A stretch of 53,094 nucleotides of DNA, from positions 1 to 53,094 of the forward strand of contig MGKO01000004.1 of the NCBI GenBank assembly GCA_001795695.1. The letters are read 5' to 3'. The stretch is from Candidatus Yanofskybacteria bacterium RIFCSPLOWO2_01_FULL_49_17. Lineage in GTDB: Bacteria > Patescibacteriota > Minisyncoccia > 2-02-FULL-40-12 > GWA2-44-9. Made by a program: the position numbers and the translations under genes. Below, one piece after another: positions 18,306 to 52,086 of this stretch (position 1 is the first letter of the stretch; the number at the start of each line of letters is the position of its first letter). The notes under the pieces are model-generated. The model did no database searches. It was not told the origin of the DNA and worked only from the letters and a program-made list of their open reading frames with translations.

Positions 18306-18654
18306 AAGCCTCTTTAGTAGACCTCAGCCAGCCACCGATTTGCCTTCCCAGTTCATCTATATGAGACTGCAAGATAATATATTTTTTAATGTCCAGAGCT
18401 TTTGTGTCTTTCATAAGTCTGATAAATCCTCTGAGCATACTCACTACTACACTTGTCTCCTCAATGATAGATATCCGTAGTTCTTTTTTGGTTTGTATAG
18501 CTCGGGCGATAAGACGAATAAGCTCCAAGGTGTGTAGCTCTGTCTGTTTCCAAATAGTATATTGGTCTTTGCGCGACATCGTCTCCCGATATTCGCAGAG
18601 GAGTTTATATAGGTCATACGCTTTTCGATAGATAGGGATATCAAATTCATTCAT
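18304..18654 (-). CDS. avd: Avd-like accessory protein (four-helix-bundle / 23S-rRNA-IVS protein family)
   Basis: 116 aa, basic and helical. N-terminal IPIYRKAYDLYKLL and C-terminal ..LQSHIDELGRQIGGWLRS fit the family pattern. Adjacent to TR and RT. Confidence 0.7.
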   Translation of the reverse strand: MNEFDIPIYRKAYDLYKLLCEYRETMSRKDQYTIWKQTELHTLELIRLIARAIQTKKELRISIIEETSVVVSMLRGFIRLMKDTKALDIKKYIILQSHIDELGRQIGGWLRSTKEA

Positions 18655-18758
18655 CCCGTAGGAAATTTAACTGTCCAAGATTTAACCGATACACGGTACC
18701 AGTCAAGACAAGTCACATATAAACTGTTAATAATTAATTTGTAAAAATTTCTGACGGG
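18655..18758. repeat. T2-like TIR element filling the avd/RT divergent spacer
   Basis: Termini CCCGTAGGAAATTT / AAATTTCTGACGGG. Its 104 nt matches the size class of the 105-nt T2 copies. The avd ATG abuts one end; the RT ATG lies 4 nt from the other. Confidence 0.6.
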
Positions 18759-18762
18759 ATTC

Positions 18763-19811
18763 ATGAAGATATATTATGATGTTTTTTCTAAAATAGTTTC
18801 CCTAGAGAGCTTATTTTTAGCATGGCAGGAGTTTCGGAAAGGTAAATCGGCAAAGGAAGATGTTCAACAATTTGAGTTCAATCTGGAGGAAAATATTTTC
18901 CAACTTCACGATGAGTTGGCTAACGGCTTGTATCGTCACGGACCATATGAAGGATTTTTCGTTCACGATCCCAAGCGTAGGCATATTCACAAGGCTTTGG
19001 TCCGAGATCGGGTCGTCCATCACGCTATATTTTCGGTTATCAATCCGATATTTGAGGAAACGTTCATTCCAACATCCTTTTCCTGTCGGGTGGGATTTGG
19101 CGCTCATCGAGGAGTGGCAAGATTGCATCAGATGCTTCGTTCGGTGTCCTGTAACGGAACCAGGTCTTGTTTTGCTTTGAAATGCGATATTAAAAAATTC
19201 TTTGACTCGATAGATCATAATGTCCTGCTGGACCTTATTGGCAACCGAATGAAAGATCCCTCGGCGGGAATTTTGGTGAGCGAAGTTATTAATAGTTACG
19301 CCACGAGAGAGAGAGAGAGAGCAGAAACAGCCACCGAAAAACCGGTTTGCCCATCGGTAACCTGACCAGCCAGCTCTTTGGCAATATCTACATGAACGAG
19401 TTTGATCAGTTCGTAAAGCATAAATTGCGAGTTAAGAATTATTGCCGCTACACAGACGATTTTATCATTGTTTCATCAGAAAAAGAATACTTAGAAGAAC
19501 TGATTCCGAGAATAGAAGCGTTTTTAGGAGAACGGTTGCATTTGAAGTTGCACCCTGCCAAAGTAAGTATCCGTAAGATGGGTCAAGGAGTTGATTTCCT
19601 TGGTTATGTACAATTTCTTAATCATAGATTGTTACGTGTTAAAACCAGACGTCGGATATTTAGGAAATTTAACAATCAAATATTAAAGTATCAGCAGGGC
19701 ATTATTTCTCGCGAAAAATTGAATAGTTCCTTGCAATCTTACCTTGGTGTCTTTGGCCATGCCGATACATTCAGCATTGAACAGGAATTGCTCAATTTAT
19801 TGCCCATTTGA
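18763..19811 (+). CDS. DGR reverse transcriptase, split into two frames at a (GA)8 tract
   Basis: ORF 18763-19365 carries the N-terminal RT motifs (..HIHKALVRDRVVHHAI.., FDSIDH). The frame open from 19296 to 19811 carries GLPIGNLTSQLFGNIYMNEFD (the DGR-type [IL]GxxxSQ motif) and YTDDF. Removing one GA unit fuses both into about 348 aa. Confidence 0.85.
19305..19320. repeat. (GA)8 dinucleotide tract at the RT frame junction
   Basis: gagagagagagagaga followed by g. Confidence 0.95.
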
Positions 19812-22385: not shown

Positions 22386-22652
22386 ATGGTAGAAGTCAAA
22401 CGAAAACCAAATGAATCCATCGGCGGTTTATTGCGCCGATTCAACCGCTTCGTCCAACAGAGCGGCGTTTTGCTCAAAGCCAAGCGCTCCAAGTTCCGCG
22501 AAAAGACGATGACCGAGCGCAAGGAGAAGAACGCGGCTATCATGGGTCTGCATCTTTCGGAACTTCGCAAGCGTCTTGAAAAACTCGGCAAATATGATGA
22601 GGAGACATTTGATGAGGAGAAGCGCAAGATGAAACAAGAACTTGGACTATAA
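22386..22652 (+). CDS. rpsU: Ribosomal protein S21
   Basis: VEVKRKPNESIGGLLRRFNRFVQQSGVLLKAKRSKFREK. SD AAAGGAGG lies upstream. Confidence 0.75.
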   Translation: MVEVKRKPNESIGGLLRRFNRFVQQSGVLLKAKRSKFREKTMTERKEKNAAIMGLHLSELRKRLEKLGKYDEETFDEEKRKMKQELGL

Positions 22653-22722
22653 TCCTAATCTACGAATGTATCCGAATGATACGAATTCGGAGCATTCGAA
22701 TATAATTTGTAACATTCGTATT
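22653..22722. repeat. H7 hairpin (CGAATG / CATTCG units)
   Basis: acgaatgtatccgaatgatacgaattcgg / agcattcgaatataatttgtaacattcgt, ending 3 nt before the ATG. Confidence 0.55.
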
Positions 22723-41034: not shown

Positions 41035-41867
41035 TGGCTAAGAACTACAAACCAACAACTTCATCGCGCCGCCACATGCAGGGATATGATTTCTCGGGTC
41101 TTTCGGATTTGAGTCCTTTGAAATCTCGTGTCCATGGCTACAAGAAATCATACGGCCGGAATAATCAGGGCCGCATCACCGGCGGCCGCCAGGGCCGAGG
41201 CGGAGGAGCCAAACAGCTCTACCGCGAGGTTGACTTCAAGCAGGACAAGTTTAATGTGCCGGGCACGGTTGTAGCTTTGGAATACGATCCGAATCGGACT
41301 ACCCGCGTCGCTCGCGTTCACTATAAAGACGGCGACAAGCGCTACATCTTGGCTCCCCAGGAGCTCAAAGTCGGGGACACGGTCATCACTTCCGAGCAGG
41401 GCTTATTGAGGCCTGGTAACCGCATGAAGTTAAAGAACATCCCGCAGGGCTCGCTTGTTCATAATATTGAGATACATCCTTCAAGCGGCGGCAAAATGGT
41501 CCGCTCGGCCGGTTCGGCCGCTTCGGTATTGGCCAGCGAGGGCGGTTACGTCCAACTGGTGATGCCGTCATCGGAGACCCGTTTGGTCTCTGGCGAGTGC
41601 TACGCTTCCATCGGCCAGTTATCCAATCAGGAGCACAGCTCCATCTCGCTGGGTAAAGCCGGCCGCACCCGTTGGCTCGGCCGCCGGCCGAAGGTCCGCG
41701 GCACGGTCATGAACCCGGTTGACCATCCGTACGGCGGAGGAGAGGGCCGCCAGGGCCGCGGCACGCGCCGGCCGAAGACCGCGCAGGGAAAGGTCACCGG
41801 CGGCCGCAAGACCCGCAACAAGAAAAAGAAATCAAATAAGTTCATTGTCCGCCGACGCCAGAAATAG
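41034..41867 (+). CDS. rplB: Ribosomal protein L2
   Basis: GRNNQGRIT, VHNIE..PS.GGKMVRSAG, MNPVDHPYGGGEG. Confidence 0.95.
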   Translation: MAKNYKPTTSSRRHMQGYDFSGLSDLSPLKSRVHGYKKSYGRNNQGRITGGRQGRGGGAKQLYREVDFKQDKFNVPGTVVALEYDPNRTTRVARVHYKDGDKRYILAPQELKVGDTVITSEQGLLRPGNRMKLKNIPQGSLVHNIEIHPSSGGKMVRSAGSAASVLASEGGYVQLVMPSSETRLVSGECYASIGQLSNQEHSSISLGKAGRTRWLGRRPKVRGTVMNPVDHPYGGGEGRQGRGTRRPKTAQGKVTGGRKTRNKKKKSNKFIVRRRQK

Positions 41868-41932
41868 AAACTAGGAAATAGGTTATAGGAAATAGCTGTA
41901 ACCTAAAATCCTATAACCTATAAGCTAATAAT
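41868..41932. repeat. H7 hairpin (ATAGG / CCTAT family)
   Basis: A 13-nt core ataggttatagga pairs with tcctataacctat, flanked by heptamer-periodic sequence. Ends 9 nt before the ATG. Confidence 0.7.
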
Positions 41933-42286
41933 ATGTCACGAAGTTTAAAAAAGGGACCATTCGTAGATCAGAGGTTATTGAAGAAGATAGCCAATTTGAA
42001 GGCGGGCGATAAGACCGTCATCAAGACCTGGTCCCGCGCCTGTACCATTGTGCCCGAGATGATTGGATTTACTTTCGGCGTCCACAACGGCCGCATCCAT
42101 CTTCCCGTGTTCATAAGCGAGGACATGGTCGGACACAAACTGGGGGAGTTTGCCCATACTCGCAAGTTCAGCCGTCACGGCGGCAAGATGCAGCGCGAGA
42201 TGGAAGCGGCAGCCAAGCAGAAGGAGATTGATGCCGCCCAGGCCGCCAAAGCGCCGCCAGCCGAGGCAAAAGCAGAAGGAAATTGA
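41933..42286 (+). CDS. rpsS: Ribosomal protein S19 (C-terminal extension)
   Basis: [33 protein letters not shown]. Confidence 0.95.
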
Positions 42287-42352
42287 TTAGCTTATAGGAA
42301 ATAGGTGATAGAAAAACTATAACCTAAAATCCTAAAACCTAAAACCTAGAAG
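42287..42352. repeat. H7 hairpin (ATAGG / CCTAA family)
   Basis: cttataggaaataggtgatag .. ctataacctaaaatcctaaaacctaaaacctag. Confidence 0.65.
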
Positions 42353-42859
42353 ATGGCAACCGTAAAAGCACAATTGATGAACGCCCGATTGGCTCCGCGC
42401 AAGGTGCGGCTGATAGTCAATTTGGTCAAAGGCAAAAACGCCCAGGCAGCCTTAGAGCAGCTGGCTTTTGTCATACGCCGTCCGGCCGAGCCCATAGCTA
42501 AACTCATAAAATCGGCCATTGCCAACGCGACCAATAATTTCAATATGGTGGCGAGCAACTTGTACATCAAAGATTTCTATGTGGATGAGGGAGTGAAATT
42601 GAAGCGCTACCGACCGGCCGGTTTTGGCCGGACCCGCGAGGTCCACAAGAAGACCAGCAATATTCATCTGATATTGGCCGAAAAAGTGCCCGGCCTGAAA
42701 AGTGAAGCAGTTAAGAAGAAGGAAGAAAAGCACGAACATAAGATTGACGTCCAAATAAAGTCAAAGACAGATAAACCAGAAATAAAGACCGAACTGGGGA
42801 AGAAAGATAAAACCAGAGGTGGGTTCATGAGAAAAATGTTTCAACGCAAATCAATTTAA
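42353..42859 (+). CDS. rplV: Ribosomal protein L22 (C-terminal extension)
   Basis: ARLAPRKVRLIVNLVKGKNAQAALEQL and YVDEG..LKR..P...GR. Confidence 0.9.
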   Translation: MATVKAQLMNARLAPRKVRLIVNLVKGKNAQAALEQLAFVIRRPAEPIAKLIKSAIANATNNFNMVASNLYIKDFYVDEGVKLKRYRPAGFGRTREVHKKTSNIHLILAEKVPGLKSEAVKKKEEKHEHKIDVQIKSKTDKPEIKTELGKKDKTRGGFMRKMFQRKSI

Positions 42860-42900
42860 GTAATTATCCGAGAGCGAGAGCGATTGGAAATAATTGCTTA

Positions 42901-43059
42901 CCCCCTCTTTCTATCATGTATTCACAATATAGACAAAATGGTAAAAATTAATTATAATCAAACATCTTTGTCTTCTTATTAAGACAAGAAAGAGGGGGTC
43001 GCAAGTTTGTGGCAGCTCGTCTGCTCGCTGACTCGCACTTCCTCGCCGACAAACATCCG
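42901..43059 (+). promoter_or_regulatory. T1 element upstream of rpsC
   Basis: 5' arm CCCCCTCTTTC (42901-42911), loop promoter TAGACA-17-TATAAT (42930-42958), 3' arm GAAAGAGGGGG (42988-42998), and conserved leader GTTTGTGGCAGCTCGTCTGCT..CTTCCTCGCCGACAAAC ending at the ATG. Confidence 0.6.
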
Positions 43060-43719
43060 ATGGGACAAAAAATATCACCAATTTCGCTCCGCACCGGTAT
43101 TCAAAAGGATTGGCTCTCCCGCTGGTTTGGCGGCCGCAAATATATTCCTTATCTGAAAGATGACCTGAAGGTCCGTTCATTTCTTGAGAAGAAATTAAGG
43201 GGCATGAGCGTGGCCGACATTCAAATAGAGAGAGGGACCGACACCCTTAACATTATCATTACTACCGCTCGGCCGGGGCTTATCATCGGCCGCGGGGGAA
43301 CCGGCATCGAAGACCTTAAGAAATCCGTCCAGCGCCTGCTCAAAAAGAAGATAGCTGTCCGTCTTGAAGTTCAGGAAATAAAATATCCAGAATTGTCAGC
43401 CGCGGTCATGGCCGAATCAATGGTTGAGCAAATAGAGAAGCGTATTCCGTTCAGGCGGATAATGAAAATGACCTTACAGAAAATGATGTCCAACAAGCAG
43501 GTCAAAGGCGCTAAGCTCCAGATGGGCGGCCGTTTGGATGGCGCCGAGATTGCCCGCTCCGAGCACTTGGAAGAGGGTAACCTGCCGCTTCAGACCTTGC
43601 GCGCCGATATTGATTTTGCTAAGGCCACTGCTCATACAACCTACGGCACCATCGGAATCAAAGTTTGGATATACAAAGGCGAAAAATTTGAAGATGCCCG
43701 CAACGGCGGCGAGCGGTAA
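43060..43719 (+). CDS. rpsC: Ribosomal protein S3
   Basis: MGQKISPISLR, KH domain GRGG.GIE.L. The track start GTG 43009 lies inside the T1 leader. Confidence 0.9.
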   Translation: MGQKISPISLRTGIQKDWLSRWFGGRKYIPYLKDDLKVRSFLEKKLRGMSVADIQIERGTDTLNIIITTARPGLIIGRGGTGIEDLKKSVQRLLKKKIAVRLEVQEIKYPELSAAVMAESMVEQIEKRIPFRRIMKMTLQKMMSNKQVKGAKLQMGGRLDGAEIARSEHLEEGNLPLQTLRADIDFAKATAHTTYGTIGIKVWIYKGEKFEDARNGGER

Positions 43720-43730
43720 CATCTTCAAAA

Positions 43731-43886
43731 CCCCTCTTTTCAAATAAATAAAGAGGTGGACAAAATATTAAAAATAGATTAAAATATAACAGCTTAATCA
43801 CAGTAATACGATAGAAAAGAGGGAGTCGCAAGTTTGTAACAGCTCGGCTGTTCGCAAACTCACAACTCCTCGCTGACAAACATCCC
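43731..43886 (+). promoter_or_regulatory. T1 element upstream of rplP
   Basis: 5' arm CCCCTCTTTTC, loop promoter TGGACA-17-TAAAAT (43757-43785), 3' arm GAAAAGAGGGA, and the conserved leader ending at the ATG. Confidence 0.6.
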
Positions 43887-44297
43887 ATGCAACCAGCCAG
43901 AGTAAAACACACCAAGACCCATAAAGGCCGCAACCAGGCCCGCAAACAGTTCGCTACCCGCGGGACCCATTTGAGCTTCGGCAGCTTCGGCCTGAAAGCA
44001 GAAGAAGCCGCCTGGCTTAAAGCTAATCAACTTGAGTCGGCCCGAAAGGTCATGGCCCGTTTCATTCAGCGCGGAGGCAAGATCTGGACCAGGGTTTTTC
44101 CGGATAAACCGCGGACGGCCCGCAGTCCCGAATTGGGCATGGGCGGCGGCGCCGGAGGGTTGTCCCATTTCGTGGCCCCGGTCCAGATCGGCCGCGTTAT
44201 TTTTGAGATAGACGGTCTGCCGGAGGCGTCGGCCCGCGAGGCCTTGCGTCTGGGCGCCCACAAATTGCCGATAAAGACGAGGATTATTGCCCGTTAA
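43887..44297 (+). CDS. rplP: Ribosomal protein L16
   Basis: [15 protein letters not shown] and FGSFGLKA. Confidence 0.95.
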
Positions 44298-44298
44298 T

Positions 44299-44547
44299 AT
44301 GACTACCAATCAATCACAACCGAGAAAATTGCAGGGTCTGGTCACTTCCGATAAAATGACCAAAACGGTGGTGGTTTCGGTTACCCGCATGAAGAAGCAT
44401 CCCAAGTATAAGAAATTCTTCAAAGTGACCGCCAAGTTCAAAGCCCACAATCCAGATAACGCCTATCACACCGGCGATAAGGTCATCATTCAGGAAACCA
44501 GGCCTATGTCAAAAGAAAAACGCTGGCTAGTCATCAGTAAACTTTAA
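44299..44547 (+). CDS. rpsQ: Ribosomal protein S17 (follows L16 directly; no L29 gene in between)
   Basis: [26 protein letters not shown] and GD.V.I.E.RP.SK.K.W. Confidence 0.9.
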
Positions 44548-44628
44548 AGCTTATTAGCTTCTTAGCTTATCAGCTGATTAGGGCAACCTAATAAGCTAGT
44601 CAGCTAGGAAGCTAATCACCTAAAAAAT
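44548..44628. repeat. H7 hairpin, AGCTAAT family
   Basis: gcttattagcttcttagcttatcagctgattaggg-caa-cctaataagctagtcagctaggaagctaatc. About 30 bp, imperfect, with G:U pairs. Confidence 0.75.
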
Positions 44629-44994
44629 ATGTTGCAACTACGTTCAATAGTAGAAGTGGCGGACAATTCAGGCGCAAAACGCGTCGGCATTTTCAAAGTG
44701 CTTGGCGGCTCGCGCCGGCGCTACGCCCAGATCGGAGACATTGTCGTCGCTTCGGTCAAAGTGGCCGAGCCGCGCAAAAGCGTCAAGAAAAAAGATGTGG
44801 TGAGGTGCGTCGTTGTCCGCCAGAGAAATCCCTACCGCCGCAAGGACGGCACTTATGTCCGTTTTGACGCCAACGCGGTGGTTCTGTTGGACGGCATGGA
44901 GCCCAAAGGCGGACGCATCTTCGGACCGATACCGAGGGAAATTAAAGAAAAAGGGTTTAACACGATTGCTTCGCTCGCTAGCGAACTTGTATAA
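44629..44994 (+). CDS. rplN: Ribosomal protein L14
   Basis: ADNSGAK....KVLGGS.RRYA.IGD. Confidence 0.95.
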   Translation: MLQLRSIVEVADNSGAKRVGIFKVLGGSRRRYAQIGDIVVASVKVAEPRKSVKKKDVVRCVVVRQRNPYRRKDGTYVRFDANAVVLLDGMEPKGGRIFGPIPREIKEKGFNTIASLASELV

Positions 44995-44995
44995 C

Positions 44996-45100
44996 CCCGT
45001 TAGAAATCACGAACAACCATGAAAAAAATGATAAATAACCAAATAAACCAGACCAGCCACCGTTTCAAAACGGTGGACGGATTGTTTGATTTCTAACGGG
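44996..45100. repeat. T2 element copy a (105 nt, TIR CCCGTTAGAAATCA / TGATTTCTAACGGG)
   Basis: Identical to 46029-46133 and 46321-46425. Starts 1 nt after the rplN stop and ends at the rplX ATG. The inner hairpin CCACCGTTT-caaa-ACGGTGG is present. A 25-codon mini-ORF spans 45019-45096. Confidence 0.9.
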
Positions 45101-45406
45101 ATGAAGATTAAGAAGGGCGACAACGTGAAAATGCTGGGCGGGAAAGACCGGAACAAGACCGGCAAGGTTTTGGCCGTGATGCCTGCCGAAAATCTGCTGG
45201 TCATTGAGGGTTTAAATCTTGTTAAAAAACATACCCGGGCCAGAAAGCAGGGCCAAAAGGGACAGATCATCCATAAAGAACGGGCTGTCAGCGCGGCCAG
45301 TGTTGCTCTTGTCTGCAGGTCTTGCGGTAAGGCGACCCGCGTCGGCTATAAACTGACCGGTGACGCGAAAATCCGTGTTTGTAAAAAGTGTCAATCCGAG
45401 ATATAA
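45101..45406 (+). CDS. rplX: Ribosomal protein L24
   Basis: MKIKKGDNV.....KD..KTGKV. The MISNG prefix in the track is translated T2 repeat. Confidence 0.9.
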   Translation: MKIKKGDNVKMLGGKDRNKTGKVLAVMPAENLLVIEGLNLVKKHTRARKQGQKGQIIHKERAVSAASVALVCRSCGKATRVGYKLTGDAKIRVCKKCQSEI

Positions 45407-45490
45407 TCCTAATCCGCGAATGACATCCGAATGCCGCAAATACCAACCAAAAACATTCGTATCATTCGCATGAATTTGTAAATCAGCATC
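45407..45490. repeat. H7 hairpin (CGAATG / CATTCG units)
   Basis: ccgcgaatgacatccgaatgccgc .. aacattcgtatcattcgcatg. Confidence 0.6.
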
Positions 45491-46036
45491 ATGACTAGCT
45501 TACTGCAAAATTACCGAAAGAACGTCATTCCTGCCCTACAGAAAGAGTTTCATATTGGCAACGCTATGGCTGCGCCCAAGATCGTCAAAGTTACGATCAA
45601 TACCGGTGTCGGGAGATTTGCCAAAGACGACAAAACCCTGGAGCGTATTGCTAAGGACATAGCCATACTTTCAGGCCAAAAGCCGGTCTTCCGGGCGGCC
45701 AAAAAGTCCATCGCCAGTTTTAAGGTCCGGCAGGGCGTGCCAGTCGGTATTTCGGTCACTCTCCGCGGCCAGCGCATGTATGACTTCATCAGCCGTCTGA
45801 TAAATATCGCATTGCCCCGCTCCAGGGACTTTCGCGGGATTGAAACGAAGAACATAGACCGGAACGGCAATCTGAATCTCGGTCTGCGCGAGTCCAGCAT
45901 TTTCCCGGAGCTCAATTATGAGAATATGAAAGACATTTTCAGCTTGGAGGTTTCAGTCACCACCACGGCCAAGACCCATGAGCAGGGCGTGGCATTATTA
46001 AAGCACTTAGGTTTTCCAATCAAAAAATCCCGTTAG
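45491..46036 (+). CDS. rplE: Ribosomal protein L5
   Basis: PKIVKVTINTGVG and FRGI....D..GN.N.G. The stop codon TAG is supplied by the T2 terminal repeat. Confidence 0.95.
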   Translation: MTSLLQNYRKNVIPALQKEFHIGNAMAAPKIVKVTINTGVGRFAKDDKTLERIAKDIAILSGQKPVFRAAKKSIASFKVRQGVPVGISVTLRGQRMYDFISRLINIALPRSRDFRGIETKNIDRNGNLNLGLRESSIFPELNYENMKDIFSLEVSVTTTAKTHEQGVALLKHLGFPIKKSR

Positions 46037-46133
46037 AAATCACGAACAACCATGAAAAAAATGATAAATAACCAAATAAACCAGACCAGCCACCGTTTCA
46101 AAACGGTGGACGGATTGTTTGATTTCTAACGGG
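46029..46133. repeat. T2 element copy b
   Basis: 100% identical to copy a. Ends at the rpsN ATG. Confidence 0.9.
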
Positions 46134-46319
46134 ATGGCCAAAAAATCCACAATTGCCCGTTCCAATAAGAAGCCCAAGTTTTCTACCCGAACAGTCAGGC
46201 GCTGTTTCCTGTGCGGCCGCAAGGGCGGCTACATCGGCAGATTTGGTCTCTGCAGAATCCATTTTCGTGAATTGGCCAGTGCCGGACTTTTACCCGGAGT
46301 TAAAAAATCAAGCTGGTAA
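46134..46319 (+). CDS. rpsN: Ribosomal protein S14, zinc-binding short (type Z) form
   Basis: C.LCGR..G....[19 protein letters not shown]. Confidence 0.9.
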
Positions 46320-46320
46320 T

Positions 46321-46425
46321 CCCGTTAGAAATCACGAACAACCATGAAAAAAATGATAAATAACCAAATAAACCAGACCAGCCACCGTTTCAAAACGGTG
46401 GACGGATTGTTTGATTTCTAACGGG
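46321..46425. repeat. T2 element copy c
   Basis: 100% identical to copies a and b. Ends at the rpsH ATG. Confidence 0.9.
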
Positions 46426-46824
46426 ATGGACCCAATATCAGACATGCTCAACCGAATAAAGACCGCTTCAATGGCCCGTCAAGACCAGGTGATGATGCCG
46501 TTCTCAAAGATGAAATTAGCGATAGCCGATGTTCTTTTGAGTGCAGGATACATTTCCGGCGCAGAGAGAAAGAGCAAGAAACATAAAAAATCAGAGCATG
46601 AATACCTACTTATAGGATTGAAATACAACGACGGGACATCAGCCATCTCCGGTATTAGGATGATCAGCCGGCAGTCCCGACGGATGTACCTGACGGCTGA
46701 TGAGATAAAACCGGTCCGTTCCGGTCACGGTCTGGCCATCCTCTCCACCTCCAAAGGAGTGATGAGCTCCCGTGATGCCCGCAAACAGCATGTCGGCGGA
46801 GAGATAATTTGTGAAATCTGGTAA
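46426..46824 (+). CDS. rpsH: Ribosomal protein S8
   Basis: DPISDMLNRIK and GGEIICEIW. Confidence 0.95.
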   Translation: MDPISDMLNRIKTASMARQDQVMMPFSKMKLAIADVLLSAGYISGAERKSKKHKKSEHEYLLIGLKYNDGTSAISGIRMISRQSRRMYLTADEIKPVRSGHGLAILSTSKGVMSSRDARKQHVGGEIICEIW

Positions 46825-46865
46825 GCGAATGTCCAAGAGCGTAAGCGATTGGCGACAGTCGCTTA

Positions 46866-47018
46866 CCCCCTCCTTTTATCATGAATATACGAATGGACAA
46901 TAATACAAAAATAGATTATAATAACACAGTTTTTCATTTAATATAAAGATAAAAAGGAGGGGGTGACGAGTTTTATAACTGCTCGTCTGCTTCGCAACTC
47001 CTCGCAGATAAAATCGTT
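46866..47018 (+). promoter_or_regulatory. T1 element upstream of rplF
   Basis: 5' arm CCCCCTCCTTTT, loop promoter TGGACA-17-TATAAT (46894-46922), 3' arm AAAAGGAGGGGG (46952-46963). The helix GACGAgTTTTAT/ATAAAATCGTT ends at the ATG. Confidence 0.6.
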
Positions 47019-47561
47019 ATGAGTAAGATCGGAAAAAAACCAATTATTATCCCGGATAAAGTTGAGATAAACGTTAGCTCGGGTTCGGTTACGGTAAAGG
47101 GTCCAAAGGGAACATTGACCAAGAAGCTGCCGGCTAAAGTTTCGGTGGCTGTGAGCGATAAGGTGCTGAACATCAGGCCAGAAACGGTGGACCGCCAAGG
47201 CAAAATGGCCTGGGGCCTGGCCCGCGCTTTGGTCCAGAACATGATTCTCGGCGTTTCTGAAGGTTTTGAAAAAGTGCTGGAGTTCCAAGGTGTCGGTTAC
47301 AAAGCGACAGTCAAAGGAAACGACCTGGAGCTCGGGCTGGGCTATTCCCACCCGGTCACCGTTCACGGGCCGGAAGGGGTCACTTTCAAGACCGAGAAGA
47401 ACTCCATCTGCATCCAGGGCGCCGATAAAGAGCTTGTCGGAAAAGTAGCCGCCGAAATTCGCTCCCATCGCAAGCCGGAGCCATATAAAGGCAGCGGCAT
47501 TCGCTATGTGGGTGAGCATGTCCGACGTAAAGCTGGGAAGAAAGCGGCAACAGCGGCGTAA
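47019..47561 (+). CDS. rplF: Ribosomal protein L6
   Basis: SKIGKKPI.IP..V and V.VKGPKG.L. Confidence 0.95.
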   Translation: MSKIGKKPIIIPDKVEINVSSGSVTVKGPKGTLTKKLPAKVSVAVSDKVLNIRPETVDRQGKMAWGLARALVQNMILGVSEGFEKVLEFQGVGYKATVKGNDLELGLGYSHPVTVHGPEGVTFKTEKNSICIQGADKELVGKVAAEIRSHRKPEPYKGSGIRYVGEHVRRKAGKKAATAA

Positions 47562-47674
47562 TAATTAAAAATACAAAAATCAAAATGAAAAATGACAATT
47601 CAAAATTAAAAATGTTCAGCAATCCCATAATTTTGCATTTTGATATTTAAATTTTTAAATTTAAATTTATAATC
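47562..47674. repeat. AT-rich H7 hairpin ((AAAANNN)n arms)
   Basis: ..aaatcaaaatgaaaaatgacaattcaaaatt.. pairs with ..aattttgcattttgatatttaaattt... Ends at the ATG. Confidence 0.5.
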
Positions 47675-48037
47675 ATGGAAACAGGCAATAAACAACTGAA
47701 TAAAAAACGGCGCCACACTCGCATAAGAGCTAGAATATCTGGCACGGCCGAACGGCCCCGTGTCGCCGTCTTTCGAAGCAATCGTTTCATTTATGCCCAG
47801 GTGATCGATGACGCCGCAAAAAAGACCATTATCAGTTCTTCGGATATAAAATCCAAAAGGTCCAGAACGGCAAAGATCAAAAAGACCGAGAGCGCGACTT
47901 CGATAGGGAGGCAACTGGCGGCCTTAATGAAAGAAAAGGGAATAAGCGAAGCGGTCTTTGACCGCGGGGGATTCAAATACCACGGCCGGGTCAGATCATT
48001 GGCCGATGGTTTGCGCGAGGGCGGAATTAAAATCTAG
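47675..48037 (+). CDS. rplR: Ribosomal protein L18
   Basis: RRHTRIRARISGTAERPRVAVFRSNR.IYAQVIDD and DRGG..YHGRV. Confidence 0.95.
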   Translation: METGNKQLNKKRRHTRIRARISGTAERPRVAVFRSNRFIYAQVIDDAAKKTIISSSDIKSKRSRTAKIKKTESATSIGRQLAALMKEKGISEAVFDRGGFKYHGRVRSLADGLREGGIKI

Positions 48038-48073
48038 CCGCTAGTAATTAGCCATTAGCAACTAGAAAAAAAC

Positions 48074-48685
48074 ATGGAACCAGAAAAAATACAATCAGTT
48101 GAAGAGATAAAAACAGAAACGCCGGCGGCTGTTGTTCCGGCGTCTGAACAGCCGGCCAAGCAAGCTGATCAGCGCTTCGGCGGCCGGGGGCGCGGACGCG
48201 GCGGAGCGGGCGGACGCGGCGGACCCCGCCGTCGCATGCAGGGGGATCGGCCGAAATCTGAATTTGACCAACGGACGCTTGAGATCGGCCGCGTATCTCG
48301 CGTGACCAAAGGCGGCAAGCGTTTCAGCTTCCGCACCACTATCGTCATCGGCGACGGCAAAGGCAGGGTCGGCGTCGGTATGGCCAAGGGAAAAGATGTC
48401 CAGCAGTCAATTCAGAAAGCGACCAATCAGGCCAAGAAGCGCCTCATCACTGTCCCGATGATAAACGGCACCATTCCTCATCAGGTTGACGCAAAATACT
48501 CCAGCGCGGTAGTAGTGTTAAAGCCGGCCCGAGGCGGCGTTAAAGCTGGCGGTCCGGTCCGAGTGGTGGCCAAACTGGCCGGCATCCATGCTTTGACCGG
48601 CAAACTTATCAGGCGGACAAACAATAAAATAAACATTGCGATGGCCACAATTGAAGCGCTTAAAAAACTCAAAACAAGGAACTAG
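48074..48685 (+). CDS. rpsE: Ribosomal protein S5 (RGG-rich N-terminal extension)
   Basis: RVSRVTKGGKRFSFR..IVIGDGKGRVGVG.AK. Confidence 0.95.
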   Translation: MEPEKIQSVEEIKTETPAAVVPASEQPAKQADQRFGGRGRGRGGAGGRGGPRRRMQGDRPKSEFDQRTLEIGRVSRVTKGGKRFSFRTTIVIGDGKGRVGVGMAKGKDVQQSIQKATNQAKKRLITVPMINGTIPHQVDAKYSSAVVVLKPARGGVKAGGPVRVVAKLAGIHALTGKLIRRTNNKINIAMATIEALKKLKTRN

Positions 48686-48742
48686 GTGATAGGAAATAGG
48701 ATGATAGTCAGAAACTAGATTCCTATAACCTATAATCTAATT
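48686..48742. repeat. H7 hairpin (ATAGG / CCTAT family) where an L30 gene would normally sit
   Basis: ggtgataggaaataggatgatag .. ctagattcctataacctataatc. Confidence 0.6.
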
Positions 48743-49219
48743 ATGGAATTACATAATCTACAACCGAATACGCCCCGCAAGTACGGCAAGCGCGTCGGGC
48801 GCGGCGGCAAGCGCGGCACCACTTCCGGTAAAGGCACCAAGGGCCAGAAGTCGCGGGCCGGCGCCGGCGTCAAACCCGGTTTCCGCGGTGGCGACAACCG
48901 CTTGTGGCAGCTTTTCCCCAAGCAGAGGGGAGCTTCAAAGAAGCCCGGCTCTAACCGGCCGCACCGCAAACATCGCTTCTATCAGCTTCGCCACGACAAA
49001 TCCGCCGTTATAAATCTTGATGTCCTTAATCAGTTTGCCGAGGGCACCCTGGTCACCCCGGAACTATTGCTTGAAAAAGGCGTTATCATTAATACCGATA
49101 AAGGCGTGAAGATCTTGAGCGATGGAAACCTGAACCGCAAGCTGGAGTTCAAGGGCTTTGATTTCTCGGCTTCGGCCAAAGAGAAAATAATTGCTGCCGG
49201 AGGCAGCATCAGCAGCTAG
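48743..49219 (+). CDS. rplO: Ribosomal protein L15
   Basis: RVGRGGKRGTTSGKGTKGQKSR and GF.GG. Confidence 0.95.
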   Translation: MELHNLQPNTPRKYGKRVGRGGKRGTTSGKGTKGQKSRAGAGVKPGFRGGDNRLWQLFPKQRGASKKPGSNRPHRKHRFYQLRHDKSAVINLDVLNQFAEGTLVTPELLLEKGVIINTDKGVKILSDGNLNRKLEFKGFDFSASAKEKIIAAGGSISS

Positions 49220-49286
49220 CTTTTTAGCTGATTAGCTTATTAGGGTAACCTAAAAAGCTAGTAAGCTAGTAAGCTAATAAGCTAGA
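49220..49286. repeat. H7 hairpin, AGCTAAT family
   Basis: The 5' arm and loop are identical to 34311-34358. Ends ..taagctaga followed by TTG. Confidence 0.75.
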
Positions 49287-50549
49287 TTGAATAAATTCTT
49301 ACAAATATTCAAAAAGCCGGACCTGCGCAACAAGATATTATTCATCTTGGGCGTGCTCATCATCTATCGGTTGGCGGCTAACGTGCCTATTCCGTTCGTG
49401 GATGCCGCCCAGCTCCAGGCCTTCTTTGAAAATAACCGCTTCTATGGCTTGCTTTCGGCTTTGACCGGCGGCTCCATCTCCCAGTTGTCCATCGTCATGC
49501 TGGCGCTCGGGCCTTACATCTCGGCCTCTATCATCATGCAGCTTTTGACGATGATATTTCCGTCCTTGGAACAGATGTACAAATACGAGGGCGAAGCCGG
49601 CCGGGCGAAGTTCAACCAATACTCCCGTCTCCTGACCGTGCCCTTGGCCGCCCTGCAGGGATTCGGCTTCCTTGTCTCCCTCCAGCGGCAGAATGTCATC
49701 GGCTATCTGGACCCGTTCCAGTGGCTGACCGTTCTGGCCGTGGTGGTGGCCGGAAGCTTGTTCTTGATGTGGCTGGGCGAGCTTATTTCCGAAAAGAATG
49801 TCGGCAACGGCGTTTCAATCCTGATCTTGGCCGGTATCGTGGCCGGATTTCCGGTCCAGCTTCAGCAGGCCCTTTTCAAATATACGCCAGCCCTTTTCTT
49901 CAGCTACATGGCCTTCATCATCTTGGCCGTCGTGGTCATTGCCGGCGTGGTGTACATCTCCGAGGCCCAGCGCAATATTCCGGTCAATTACGCCCGGCGC
50001 ATCCGGGGCTCCAAGGTCTACGGCGGCGTGTCCACCTACTTGCCGATGCGCATCAACAACGCTGGCGTGATCCCCATCATCTTCGCTCTCTCATTATTGC
50101 TGTTCCCCAGCTTGATAGCCAATTTCTTTGCCGGCACCAAGATAGCCATCGTATCCAATGTCGCCACGTCCATCAGCAACTTCCTCCAGCCGACCGGCAT
50201 CTGGTACGCGGTGTTCTATTTCCTGCTGGTGTTCCTCTTCACCTACTTCTACACGGCCATCACTTTTGACCCCAAGTCCATTTCCGAGAACGTCCAAAAG
50301 AACGGGGGATACGTTCCCGGCATCCGGCCCGGCCCTTCCACCGCCCAGTTCCTGCATCATCTTTTGACCCGCATCACTCTGGTCGGGGCGGTATTTCTTG
50401 GTCTCATCGCTGTCCTGCCGAACATCGTCCAGGGCTTCACCTCCATCACCGACTTCGCCGTCGGCGGCACCAGCATCCTCATCGTTGTGTCGGTGGCATT
50501 GGAGGTCATGAAACAGCTGGATGCCCAGCTGTCCATGTACGAATATTAA
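49287..50549 (+). CDS. secY: Preprotein translocase subunit SecY (TTG start)
   Basis: 10-TM protein with LRNKILFILGVLIIYRL, LGPYISASII and GG.VPGIRPG. Confidence 0.95.
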   Translation: MNKFLQIFKKPDLRNKILFILGVLIIYRLAANVPIPFVDAAQLQAFFENNRFYGLLSALTGGSISQLSIVMLALGPYISASIIMQLLTMIFPSLEQMYKYEGEAGRAKFNQYSRLLTVPLAALQGFGFLVSLQRQNVIGYLDPFQWLTVLAVVVAGSLFLMWLGELISEKNVGNGVSILILAGIVAGFPVQLQQALFKYTPALFFSYMAFIILAVVVIAGVVYISEAQRNIPVNYARRIRGSKVYGGVSTYLPMRINNAGVIPIIFALSLLLFPSLIANFFAGTKIAIVSNVATSISNFLQPTGIWYAVFYFLLVFLFTYFYTAITFDPKSISENVQKNGGYVPGIRPGPSTAQFLHHLLTRITLVGAVFLGLIAVLPNIVQGFTSITDFAVGGTSILIVVSVALEVMKQLDAQLSMYEY

Positions 50550-50607: not shown

Positions 50608-51264
50608 ATGGATACAGGTCGGAAGCAGGCAATCATACTGATGGGGCCGCCGGGGAGCGGCAAGGACACGCAAGCCGAGCTTTTGGCCCGCGAGTTAAAA
50701 TTGGAGGAAATAAAAACTTCTCATATCATAGAACAAAAATTCGCGGCCGCCGAACCGAATGATGCCGTTATGAACGAAGAGAAAAGAAAGTATAAGAGTG
50801 GGGAACTGTTGGACCAAAAATTAGTAGAGGAGTGGACATTGGAAGCCATTGCTTCAGCCGCGGCTGGCCGGGGCCTCATCGCCAATGGTTGGCCGCGCAG
50901 AGTTGAGGAGGCCCAGACCGAAGTGGAAGTGTTGGAAAAGTATTACGGCAAAAATATAAAAGTCGTTACCATCGCATTAAGCGAGGAAGAATCCGTCAAG
51001 CGCAATTCCAAGCGGCGGGTCTGTCGGGCCAACGGCCATCCTATTTTAGACCCAGATATTACCGTTTGTCCGGAGGACGGCAGCCCCCTGATTACCCGGG
51101 CTGACGATATCCCTGAAACCATCAGAAAACGTTATCAGGTCTATCTTTCCGAAACCGCGCTAATTATTGACTTTTTGACCCAAAAAGGGTATAATGTAAT
51201 TACCATAGATGGCGAGCAGTCCATAGAGGATGTGCATCGCGAGATACTGAATAAACTATGGTGA
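50608..51264 (+). CDS. adk: Adenylate kinase
   Basis: P-loop GPPGSGKDTQ. LID region with C..NGH...........CP.DG. Confidence 0.85.
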   Translation: MDTGRKQAIILMGPPGSGKDTQAELLARELKLEEIKTSHIIEQKFAAAEPNDAVMNEEKRKYKSGELLDQKLVEEWTLEAIASAAAGRGLIANGWPRRVEEAQTEVEVLEKYYGKNIKVVTIALSEEESVKRNSKRRVCRANGHPILDPDITVCPEDGSPLITRADDIPETIRKRYQVYLSETALIIDFLTQKGYNVITIDGEQSIEDVHREILNKLW

Positions 51265-51273
51265 TGCATTTAT

Positions 51274-51339
51274 CCCGTTAGAAATCCCGCCTGCGCCATG
51301 CGCAGTCCGCAGGACCTCGGGCGGGATATTTCTAATGGG
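51274..51339. repeat. T2-related short element (same termini, different core)
   Basis: CCCGTTAGAAATCCCGCC .. GGCGGGATATTTCTAATGGG followed by ATG. Confidence 0.7.
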
Positions 51340-52086
51340 ATGAAATTAAAGACACCCGAAGAAATTGAAATAATGGCCGAAGGGGGCCATATTCTTTCCG
51401 ATATCCTTGATCGGCTGGTTGTCGCGGCTAAGCCCGGAACGACCACCAAAGAACTTGACGATATTGCCCGCAAGCTTCTAAAAGAAGCCGGCGCGAAGTC
51501 CTGGTTCGTTGACCATGAAGGATTCCCAGCTTCTATTTGCACTTCAATCAACGAAGAGGTGGTCCACGGTGTTCCGTCCGATAGGATTTTAAGATCAGGT
51601 GATGTGCTTAAGATAGACTTCGGCGTCCGCTATAAAGGTTTTAACACGGATAGCGCCAGAACCGTCCTTGTCGGAGAGGCCAAAGACGCTAAGAAGTTGA
51701 AATTGATATCGGTCACTAAGCGCGCTCTTGATATCGGTATTGAACAGGCTCAAGTCGGTAATGCCCTTAAGGATATCGGACGAGAGATACAAAAATACGT
51801 AGAGTCGCAAGATTTTAACGTCGTTCGGGAATTAGTCGGACATGGGATCGGCAAAGACGTTCATGAACCGCCTCAAGTCCTGAACTATGTTTCTCCGGGT
51901 GAGGGAAAGGAAAAGTTGGAACCGGGATTGGTCATCGCCATAGAGCCGATGGTGGTCGCCGGTCATTGGAAGATAGAGGACGGAAAGGACGGCTTTTCAT
52001 TCGTGACTAAAGACGGGGGCCTGGCCGCTCAATTTGAACATACGGTTGCCATAACCAAAGACGGTCCGTTAATTCTGACAAAGTAA
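51340..52086 (+). CDS. map: Methionine aminopeptidase, type I
   Basis: Motifs VVHG.P, D.G....G...D...T, HGIG...HE, EPM. Confidence 0.9.
   Translation: MKLKTPEEIEIMAEGGHILSDILDRLVVAAKPGTTTKELDDIARKLLKEAGAKSWFVDHEGFPASICTSINEEVVHGVPSDRILRSGDVLKIDFGVRYKGFNTDSARTVLVGEAKDAKKLKLISVTKRALDIGIEQAQVGNALKDIGREIQKYVESQDFNVVRELVGHGIGKDVHEPPQVLNYVSPGEGKEKLEPGLVIAIEPMVVAGHWKIEDGKDGFSFVTKDGGLAAQFEHTVAITKDGPLILTK

Follow-up and report, generated by a model that had tools for sequence, protein, structure and literature searches.

The 53,094-nt stretch analysed here (hereafter the window: positions 1 to 53,094 of contig MGKO01000004.1 of Candidatus Yanofskybacteria bacterium RIFCSPLOWO2_01_FULL_49_17) carries three copies of a 105-nt hairpin-forming sequence at the junctions of ribosomal protein genes. 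Judged from their sequences and those of their relatives, these copies are non-autonomous, MITE-like members (MITE, a transposable element of miniature size with inverted repeats) of a family of mobile hairpin-ended elements, and are not signals specific to the operon in which they lie. The copies, at 44996-45100, 46029-46133 and 46321-46425, had been noticed in a first reading made from the letters of the window (the sequence-only reading), and are indeed 100% identical.

All three copies and the genes around them, which were assigned with Pfam, are on the forward strand. Copy 1 lies between the stop of rplN (L14, 44629-44994; TAA at 44992-44994, then a C) and the ATG of rplX (L24, 45101-45406). 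Copy 2 occupies the junction of rplE (L5, 45491-46036) and rpsN (S14, 46134-46319), and copy 3 that of rpsN (TAA at 46317-46319, then a T at 46320) and rpsH (S8, 46426-46824). As the sequence-only reading had claimed, the last base of every copy directly precedes the next ATG, that of rplX (45101), rpsN or rpsH (46426), and the reading frame of rplE terminates within copy 2, whose left terminus supplies the stop codon TAG (46034-46036). The termini that it gave, CCCGTTAGAAATCA and TGATTTCTAACGGG, were also borne out, and form perfect 14-nt inverted repeats. The 105-nt unit that it described is real, but its limits are better placed one covarying base further out at each end, which gives 107 nt (element T...A); in copy 1 the terminal base on the right is the A of the rplX ATG. 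With a unit of 105-107 nt and terminal inverted repeats (TIRs), the element has the size and the ends of a MITE. As RNA it is predicted to fold into a long outer stem and a CCACCG...CGGTGG hairpin with a free energy of -37.9 kcal/mol (z = -6.65; none of 200 shuffled sequences was equally stable), and in a comparison of 14 relatives covariation is seen at stem positions 11 and 13. No open frame crosses any of the three copies on either strand. With the Rfam 15 covariance models, the gathering score was reached by rRNA and tRNA only, and nothing credible was found at E <= 10 over 44400-47100.

The whole source genome (G000; 614 kb, 16 contigs, 99.4% complete) was searched for the termini of the family, (T/C)CCCGTNNGA...TCNNACGGG(A/G), which are invariant; the interiors are unrelated and the lengths run from 48 to 278 nt. 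This genome contains 17 strictly paired copies, or about 22 with relaxed matching. A fourth copy of the window type lies at C11:13191-13295 (99%; C numbers are contigs), and a 79% copy at C6:34021-34124. The termini were present in 35 of the 62 genomes of the taxonomic family, the reversed-pattern control giving 0. Of 401 genomes taken from across the phylum, 50 contained them, and the control scored a single hit in each of 5. Copies are distributed in a patchy manner, with none in the two same-genus genomes G026 and G027, 29 in G008 and 46 in G042. The earlier proposal that the identity of the window copies reflects recent spread, here of a mobile repeat, is supported. Full-text literature searches found no published description of this element family. 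In IMG/VR, nine stretches (L187-L195) on eight viral-collection contigs show CCCGTTAGAA-N45-75-TTCTAACGGG; these contigs may be phage carriers or misclassified contigs of the candidate phyla radiation.

In order to reconstruct the insertion, we collected 158 non-redundant copies with their flanks, and the flank and placement counts that follow are over 157 of them. In most copies the flank hexamers are direct repeats, matching at 5 or more of their 6 positions in 85 copies. Their middle dinucleotides pair as TC/TC (29), GA/GA (28), CC/CC (9) and GC/GC (8), and only one pair is inverted; an extension of the termini into the flanks as an inverted repeat was rejected, since the hexamers repeat directly. 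The core is bordered by a left-hand T and a right-hand A in ~141 copies, while ~16 (about 10%) have C...G instead. Because the two change together, both belong to the element, and the simplest model, as far as alignment of the flanks can tell, would be an element T[core]A bordered by a 4-bp target duplication. Such a duplication is perfect in 55 of the 98 copies that lie flush with a gene. The duplicated word is most often TGAA/TTCA, with TGGA, TGCG and similar words also found, and the last base of the element together with the duplicated TG re-creates an ATG, or a GTG in the C...G variants. The start of ssb offers a comparison of a filled with an empty site: G026 and G027 read TAA, 9 nt and ATGAATCTC, whereas G000 reads TAA, 9 nt, ATGAAT, the 105-nt core and ATGAATCTA, which proves the 4-bp duplication.

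The ATG of an open reading frame (ORF) of at least 50 amino acids is adjoined by 100 of the 157 copies. The target word alone does not explain this placement, since only 97 of the 1,719 occurrences of ATGAA in G000 are at predicted starts. Insertions away from starts are also on ATG words, namely ATGAAA and ATGCGC inside other elements and ATGGAT for a 72-nt member within a 340-codon frame. We read the placement, from these sites, as probable recognition of the ATG word as a sequence, followed by loss of the insertions that broke genes; given that the element rebuilds the start codon, the copies that survive directly adjoin a start codon or form in-frame inserts within a gene. The sequence-only reading had taken target-site duplications at random positions as the signature of an ordinary MITE, and of this pair the duplications are common while random placement is not seen. 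Orientation relative to the adjoining gene is fixed, at 28:0 in the sub-family of the window and at 19:1, 13:0, 4:0 and 4:0 in four others. We considered two explanations for this bias. An ORF starting at the duplicated ATG was rejected, as its fate is equal in the real and the reversed orientation. A reverse-strand terminator was rejected as well: T-runs are commoner in reversed elements (24 vs 3), but scanning both strands of the window copies for terminators gave no hit.

Members of the family also occur inside one another. One member of 114 nt has a 79-nt member nested in it at cgaATGAAat, and the same 114-nt type also harbours a member of 48 nt at ttATGCGCag; such composites were found at L059/L060 (G042:C7:4122-4588), L130, L132 and L141, and are themselves multi-copy. 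Short members that are GC-rich (69-75 nt) have an open frame and persist inside ORFs, with stop-free examples of 69-72 nt at C7:53150-53218, C11:39108-39179 and C1:56294-56362, in frames of 443, 340 and 291 codons, respectively.

The junctions that are occupied in the window are empty in G027 and G026, where they carry TAA+TTACC+ATG, TAA+ATC(T/C)T+ATG and an ATGGTAA overlap. Compared with these, copy 3 is a clean 107-nt insertion in TAA^TG; once T[core]A is taken out, stop and start overlap again as TAATG, and the frame agrees with that of the G027 rpsH. In that genome (L049) rpsH starts MVNYPIAD at an ATG overlapping the end of rpsN; in the window (46317-46440) that ATG is CTG and the rebuilt ATG gives a protein beginning MDPISD, so that the insertion is associated with an N-terminus two residues shorter. 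Copies 1 and 2 stand in place of 5-nt spacers, and at copy 2 the TAA of rplE has been lost as well. In all, the upstream stop lies directly against the element in 8 copies, none of which has a duplication, and at rplF/rplR of G008 and G011 the sequence TAA[T...A]TG is found where the empty site of G009 has a 30-nt spacer. From the junctions compared, this duplication-free layout could be a second outcome of insertion at stop/start junctions, the product of later spacer deletion under selection for juxtaposition, or the result of recombination between copies.

A candidate parent of the gene-less copies can be proposed from a single 278-nt element of G000 (C7:61732-62009), with termini CCCGTTAGAGCC/GGCTCTAACGGG and, at C7:61747-62010, a sole ORF of 88 amino acids. 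The only Pfam match of this ORF is GIY-YIG (E = 2e-17), and the nearest solved structures are UPF0213 BH0048 (E = 1e-11) and SLX1. No other long element bounded by the family termini, such as a classical transposase parent, was found in G000. Among 11 scanned loci of relatives with homologues at least 62% identical, 10 hold elements that measure 275-278 nt and share these termini; at the remaining locus, in G008, there is one TAG inside the match. Nine of the 10 ORFs in these full-length elements end ...TG* on the TGA of an ATGA that overlaps the rebuilt host ATG, and 5 begin MNPVR, in frame from the duplicated host ATG; the full-length element seems, from this arrangement, to be built for translation from the host's own start, handing ribosomes on via ATGA. 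A close homologue (E <= 1e-28) occurs in 13 genomes, and gene-less copies were found in 13 of these 13 against 22 of the 49 others, a comparison in which related genomes are non-independent samples. The variant of the terminus also agrees between the nuclease element and the gene-less copies of the same genome (GTAC in G007 and at one end in G003; TTAG in G000 and G042). Three further small GIY-YIG genes of G000 have other flanks (C6:65841-66035 on the minus strand; C3:9499-9699 and C11:38511-38687 on the plus strand), and the one at C11:38511-38687 is followed by AAAAAGAGGGGGTGACGAACTTTGTGACAGCTCGG, which resembles the T1-type repeats of the window described below. Other repeat families in G000 may each have a nuclease of their own.

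In regards to translation of the downstream genes, the 25-codon mini-ORF that had been reported in each copy is present at 45019-45096, 46052-46129 and 46344-46421, and its TAA, in the right terminus, lies 4 nt before the host ATG. In the window sub-type, 18 of 26 distinct copies have no stop in the TAA-ending frame, whereas each of the other frames is free of stops in 1 of 26. ORFs with 10 or more codons that end no more than 10 nt from the host ATG were found in 45 of 98 copies as they stand and in 13 of 98 with the element reversed. In duplications with a single mismatch it is mostly the G of the upstream ATG that differs (ATTAAT, ATAAAT, ATCAAT), which points to selection on translation signals around the insert. 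Judging from these frames, translational coupling through the mini-ORF is plausible. It had also been claimed that no Shine-Dalgarno (SD) sequence separates the element from the ATG; this is true but not special, since an SD-like 4-mer precedes only 17 of 196 well-defined starts of G000. An altered SD/anti-SD pairing with TAACGGG was rejected, the 3' tail of the 16S rRNA being the normal CACCUCCUUUCU. The regions upstream of starts in G000 are 70-80% A+T, and the motif TANNNT stands exactly at -12 from the ATG in 38 of the 196 starts, against about 5-10 at other offsets, which suggests that many genes of this genome are transcribed as leaderless mRNAs. Of the 55 copies with a duplication, 20 have a -10-like box whose position relative to the duplicated ATG is -12 or -13.

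Taken as a whole, these data are best explained, and in our opinion quite probably so, by a mobile ATG-targeting family with a GIY-YIG parent, the copies of the ribosomal operon being co-transcribed and crossed by reinitiation. The family inserts in words that contain ATG, most commonly ATGAA, separating the A from the TG and usually duplicating 4 bp. The nuclease would mobilise the gene-less copies as well as itself, probably acting on single-stranded hairpin DNA. In the operon, a stem of roughly -38 kcal/mol in the shared transcript would join the upstream stop to the downstream AUG. Termination-reinitiation could then maintain downstream translation, in that the 25-codon mini-ORF would open the stem and bring ribosomes to a point 4 nt from the AUG. 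The duplication-free copies of the window may have replaced short spacers, or may have spread locally by recombination. A narrower proposal, which we put forward tentatively and consider possible rather than probable, is that the 88-residue GIY-YIG nuclease is the sole protein of a ~278-bp autonomous element that recognises ATG words, uses the host start, often leaderless, and hands back through ATGA, its gene-less derivatives, among them the three of the operon, surviving between essential genes by means of the mini-ORF relay and the stem.

Several observations weigh against the ATG-targeting family as we have described it. The 4-bp duplication is absent from all four copies of the window sub-type (the three in the window and the one on C11), copy 2 is not explicable by simple insertion, as the rplE stop was lost, and in the stop-flush cases the whole spacer is replaced, which plain cut-and-paste does not predict. 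The 105-nt element has only about 9-10 terminal bases in common with the nuclease element. Fixed orientation could stem from the chemistry of insertion and not from selection, and the ORF from the duplicated ATG, as said above, fares the same in both orientations. The mini-ORF is absent in 8 of 29 relatives, and other sub-types are without one, which counts against the termination-reinitiation coupling suggested in the sequence-only reading, whereas the ATGA endings and the stop-free TAA frame speak for it. Finally, no close strain in which polymorphism could be followed came to light, an exact-protein look-up giving no match and a metagenome scan no relative of more than 68% identity.

The missing duplications could also be explained if the copies of the operon, together with the one on C11, had not come through the usual insertion reaction of the family but had been copied between junctions, either by gene conversion or by a template switch at short stretches of homology (left, AAT/ATCC; right, ATG(G)), an explanation that concerns how the copies arrived and not the nature of the element. 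Such local recombination would account both for the perfect identity of three copies within 1.4 kb and for the lack of a duplication in 4 of 4 members of the window sub-type, against its presence in 55 of the 98 gene-flush members of the family. At rplE/rpsN, moreover, G026 has the ancestral TAA and spacer as AAAATAAATCCT where the window has AAAAAATCCCG, a difference that a crossover in AAATCC could have produced. However, the C11 copy, on another contig and in an unrelated context, is also without a duplication, no extended flank identity is found around the copies, and the same stop-flush layout recurs elsewhere (rplF/rplR of G008 and G011; 8 cases in all), which argues for a regular outcome of the family. 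The gene conversion that had been suggested as a source of the identical copies could thus still apply to the three in the window, as none has the usual duplication, but on balance we find it unlikely.

It is also conceivable that a mobile ATG-targeting element of this kind is a purely selfish and translationally neutral insert, the AUG on the 3' side of the hairpin being simply used by an organism whose initiation is SD-free, at A/U-rich or leaderless starts, and the mini-ORF and the orientation being by-products of descent and of polar insertion. The rarity of SD-like motifs at well-defined starts, the relatives without a mini-ORF and the equal fate of the frame-0 ORF in real and reversed elements all agree with neutrality, as do the hits on non-start words (ATGAAA, ATGCGC, ATGGAT), since these imply that the target is recognised as a sequence. 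Neutrality is nevertheless doubtful, because normal starts have 70-80% A+T upstream while here a GC-rich stem of 14-20 bp ends at -1, and because diverged copies have kept the TAA frame free of stops when the other frames have not. The excess of relay ORFs over the reversed elements, the ATGA ends of 9 of the 10 full-length elements and the one-mismatch duplications, which mostly change the G of the upstream ATG, point in the same direction.

A host-selected RNA device, in which the stems serve as processing or regulatory signals, for example through a cut at the stem base that releases mRNAs led by the AUG, would fit the very stable fold ending exactly at the AUG, the conservation of the termini across the phylum and the leaderless geometry of the 38 of 196 genes with TANNNT at -12. 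However, both same-genus genomes are without elements, and their junctions work with spacers of 0-5 nt. Target duplications, nested copies, in-frame intragenic copies and a nuclease-bearing parent are likewise not what such a device would predict, and there is no Rfam match. Nucleases of the type of SsnA, a single-domain GIY-YIG enzyme to which we return below, are inactive on RNA according to its description (PMC11893778). We therefore regard this explanation as very improbable. That the assembler misplaced or duplicated identical repeats, as perfect 105-nt identity could in principle make a short-read assembly do, is hardly credible when the order L14-L24-L5-S14-S8 is canonical, every flank is unique and the same kind of junction insert is found in independently assembled related genomes.

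Two further members of the ATG-targeting family in the window had been pointed out as relatives before map and in the avd/RT spacer, and both are real. The first is a GC-rich short member of 66 nt on the plus strand (51274-51339), between adk (stop at 51262-51264) and map (ATG at 51340); its right terminus, TTCTAATGGG, has one mismatch, and it is open in frame with map. The second, of 104 nt, is on the minus strand in the avd/RT spacer (18655-18758), with the 4-bp duplication TTCA at 18650-18653 and 18760-18763. Read on the minus strand, an ORF from its duplicated ATG crosses the whole element and ends with a TGA that overlaps the rebuilt ATG (ATGA). The window also contains a decayed short copy in the 16S-23S spacer, at about 546-589 (TCCATTAGAGC...CCTCTAACGGGA), and an orphan right end at 2055-2068 (GACTTCTTACGGG+ATTCATG) that resembles the right end at 18749-18780.

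Palindromic repeats of other families are found at many junctions of the S10-spc operon (window 41860-49300), where G027 has spacers of 4-5 nt or overlaps at the junctions compared. They comprise a TAGCTTATTAGCTGATTAGGG type (44537-44629, 49207-49299), a TATAACCTA type (41865-41927, 42288-42351, 48703-48739) and a GGAGGGGGTGACGA or T1 type (42857-43062, 43759-43889, 46822-46973). At the end of rplX, a promoter-like TTGTAA-17-TATAAT (45379-45407) precedes the 84-nt rplX/rplE spacer, which itself has an inverted match to 22649-22686.

The family shows how a genome of 614 kb with almost no spare DNA can tolerate insertions by the dozen, some of them between ribosomal protein genes that are essential: the element lands on a start codon and returns one. 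The annotation of Patescibacteria is affected in its start sites, in its gene ends (rplE ends inside an element) and in its N-terminal extensions, and the insertions provide a natural setting in which translation that is SD-independent, coupled or leaderless could be studied in uncultivated bacteria. The likely parent, with 278 bp and one 88-amino-acid GIY-YIG domain, would be among the smallest self-contained mobile genes imaginable. If the GIY-YIG protein is the mobilising enzyme, it would represent a new enzyme class for prokaryotic transposition and suggest a selfish origin for hairpin nucleases of the Ssn type. Were the tentative reading of the 88-residue gene as an autonomous element true, this new enzymatic class of prokaryotic transposon would come with built-in translational coupling.

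Among known systems, the bacterial MITEs that are co-transcribed as hairpins include Correia/NEMIS of Neisseria, ERIC, RUP and Nezha. Like the present family they are short, non-coding and multi-copy, have TIRs and a target duplication, have a patchy distribution, lie in transcribed intergenic regions, and can supply codons or signals to their neighbours. In contrast to them, the elements described here have an ATG-containing target that is cut between A and TG, a rebuilt start codon and a fixed orientation, and their candidate parent is a 278-nt GIY-YIG gene and not an insertion sequence with a DDE transposase. Correia elements have a TA duplication and Correia termini of about 26 bp, whereas the duplications found here are TGAA/TTCA, TGGA, TGCG and similar, and the termini are CCCGTNNGA. 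The Rickettsia palindromic elements (RPEs) are mobile palindromic repeats that persist because the genes they enter stay unbroken. The family's GC-rich members of 69-75 nt, open in frame inside long ORFs (C7:53150, C11:39108), resemble them, but the 105-nt type of the window is not read through, being placed between genes where it abuts both the stop and the start; an ATG target and a candidate nuclease further distinguish the family from RPEs.

Translational coupling is known from overlapping stops and starts (ATGA, TAATG), and hairpin-bridged initiation from genes 25 and 38 of phage T4. The ATGA ends, the stop of the mini-ORF 4 nt before the AUG and the stem joining stop and start recall these cases, the likeness being at present one of sequence, but here a structured insert of 105 nt would have to be crossed. 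The IS200/IS605 elements and the repetitive extragenic palindromes with their REP-associated tyrosine transposases (REP/REPIN-RAYT) use HUH/Y1 transposases and have neither TIRs spanning the element nor a target duplication. They share with the present family hairpin ends, a very small enzyme, a short defined target, an orientation bias and gene-less derivatives mobilised in trans. They are set apart by the TIRs and 4-bp duplications found here and by the GIY-YIG nature of the enzyme; no search aimed at a Y1 transposase was made.

Both of these groups are discussed in the description of the Ssn nucleases (Chenal et al. 2025, PMC11893778), which reports single-domain GIY-YIG enzymes (SsnA, 94 amino acids) that cut single-stranded DNA beside hairpin repeats (NTS/SRM) found genome-wide, and remarks on an insertion-sequence-like NTS-ssnA-NTS layout. 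SsnA and our candidate parent are both single-domain GIY-YIG proteins of about 90 amino acids with copies of a hairpin repeat on both sides and scattered in the genome, the 88-amino-acid protein being flanked on either side by inverted copies of the terminus. Y6, Y17 and E64, which were mutated in SsnA, have the same numbers in the 88-amino-acid protein, and the stems of both repeats begin TCCCG (PMC11893778). The SRM motif itself, HGTCWYN(0-2)YYVSBRHN(0-5)WNVSBRGN(0-2)RNCYNB, was tried as a match and rejected, with 2 hits in G000 against 1-7 in shuffled sequences and none in the elements. Start-codon targeting, target duplication and a nuclease ORF in frame with the host start, all seen here, are not mentioned for the Ssn repeats in the available part of that paper (PMC11893778). 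We therefore treat Ssn as the closest working analogue of the elements in the window, and not as the family to which they belong.

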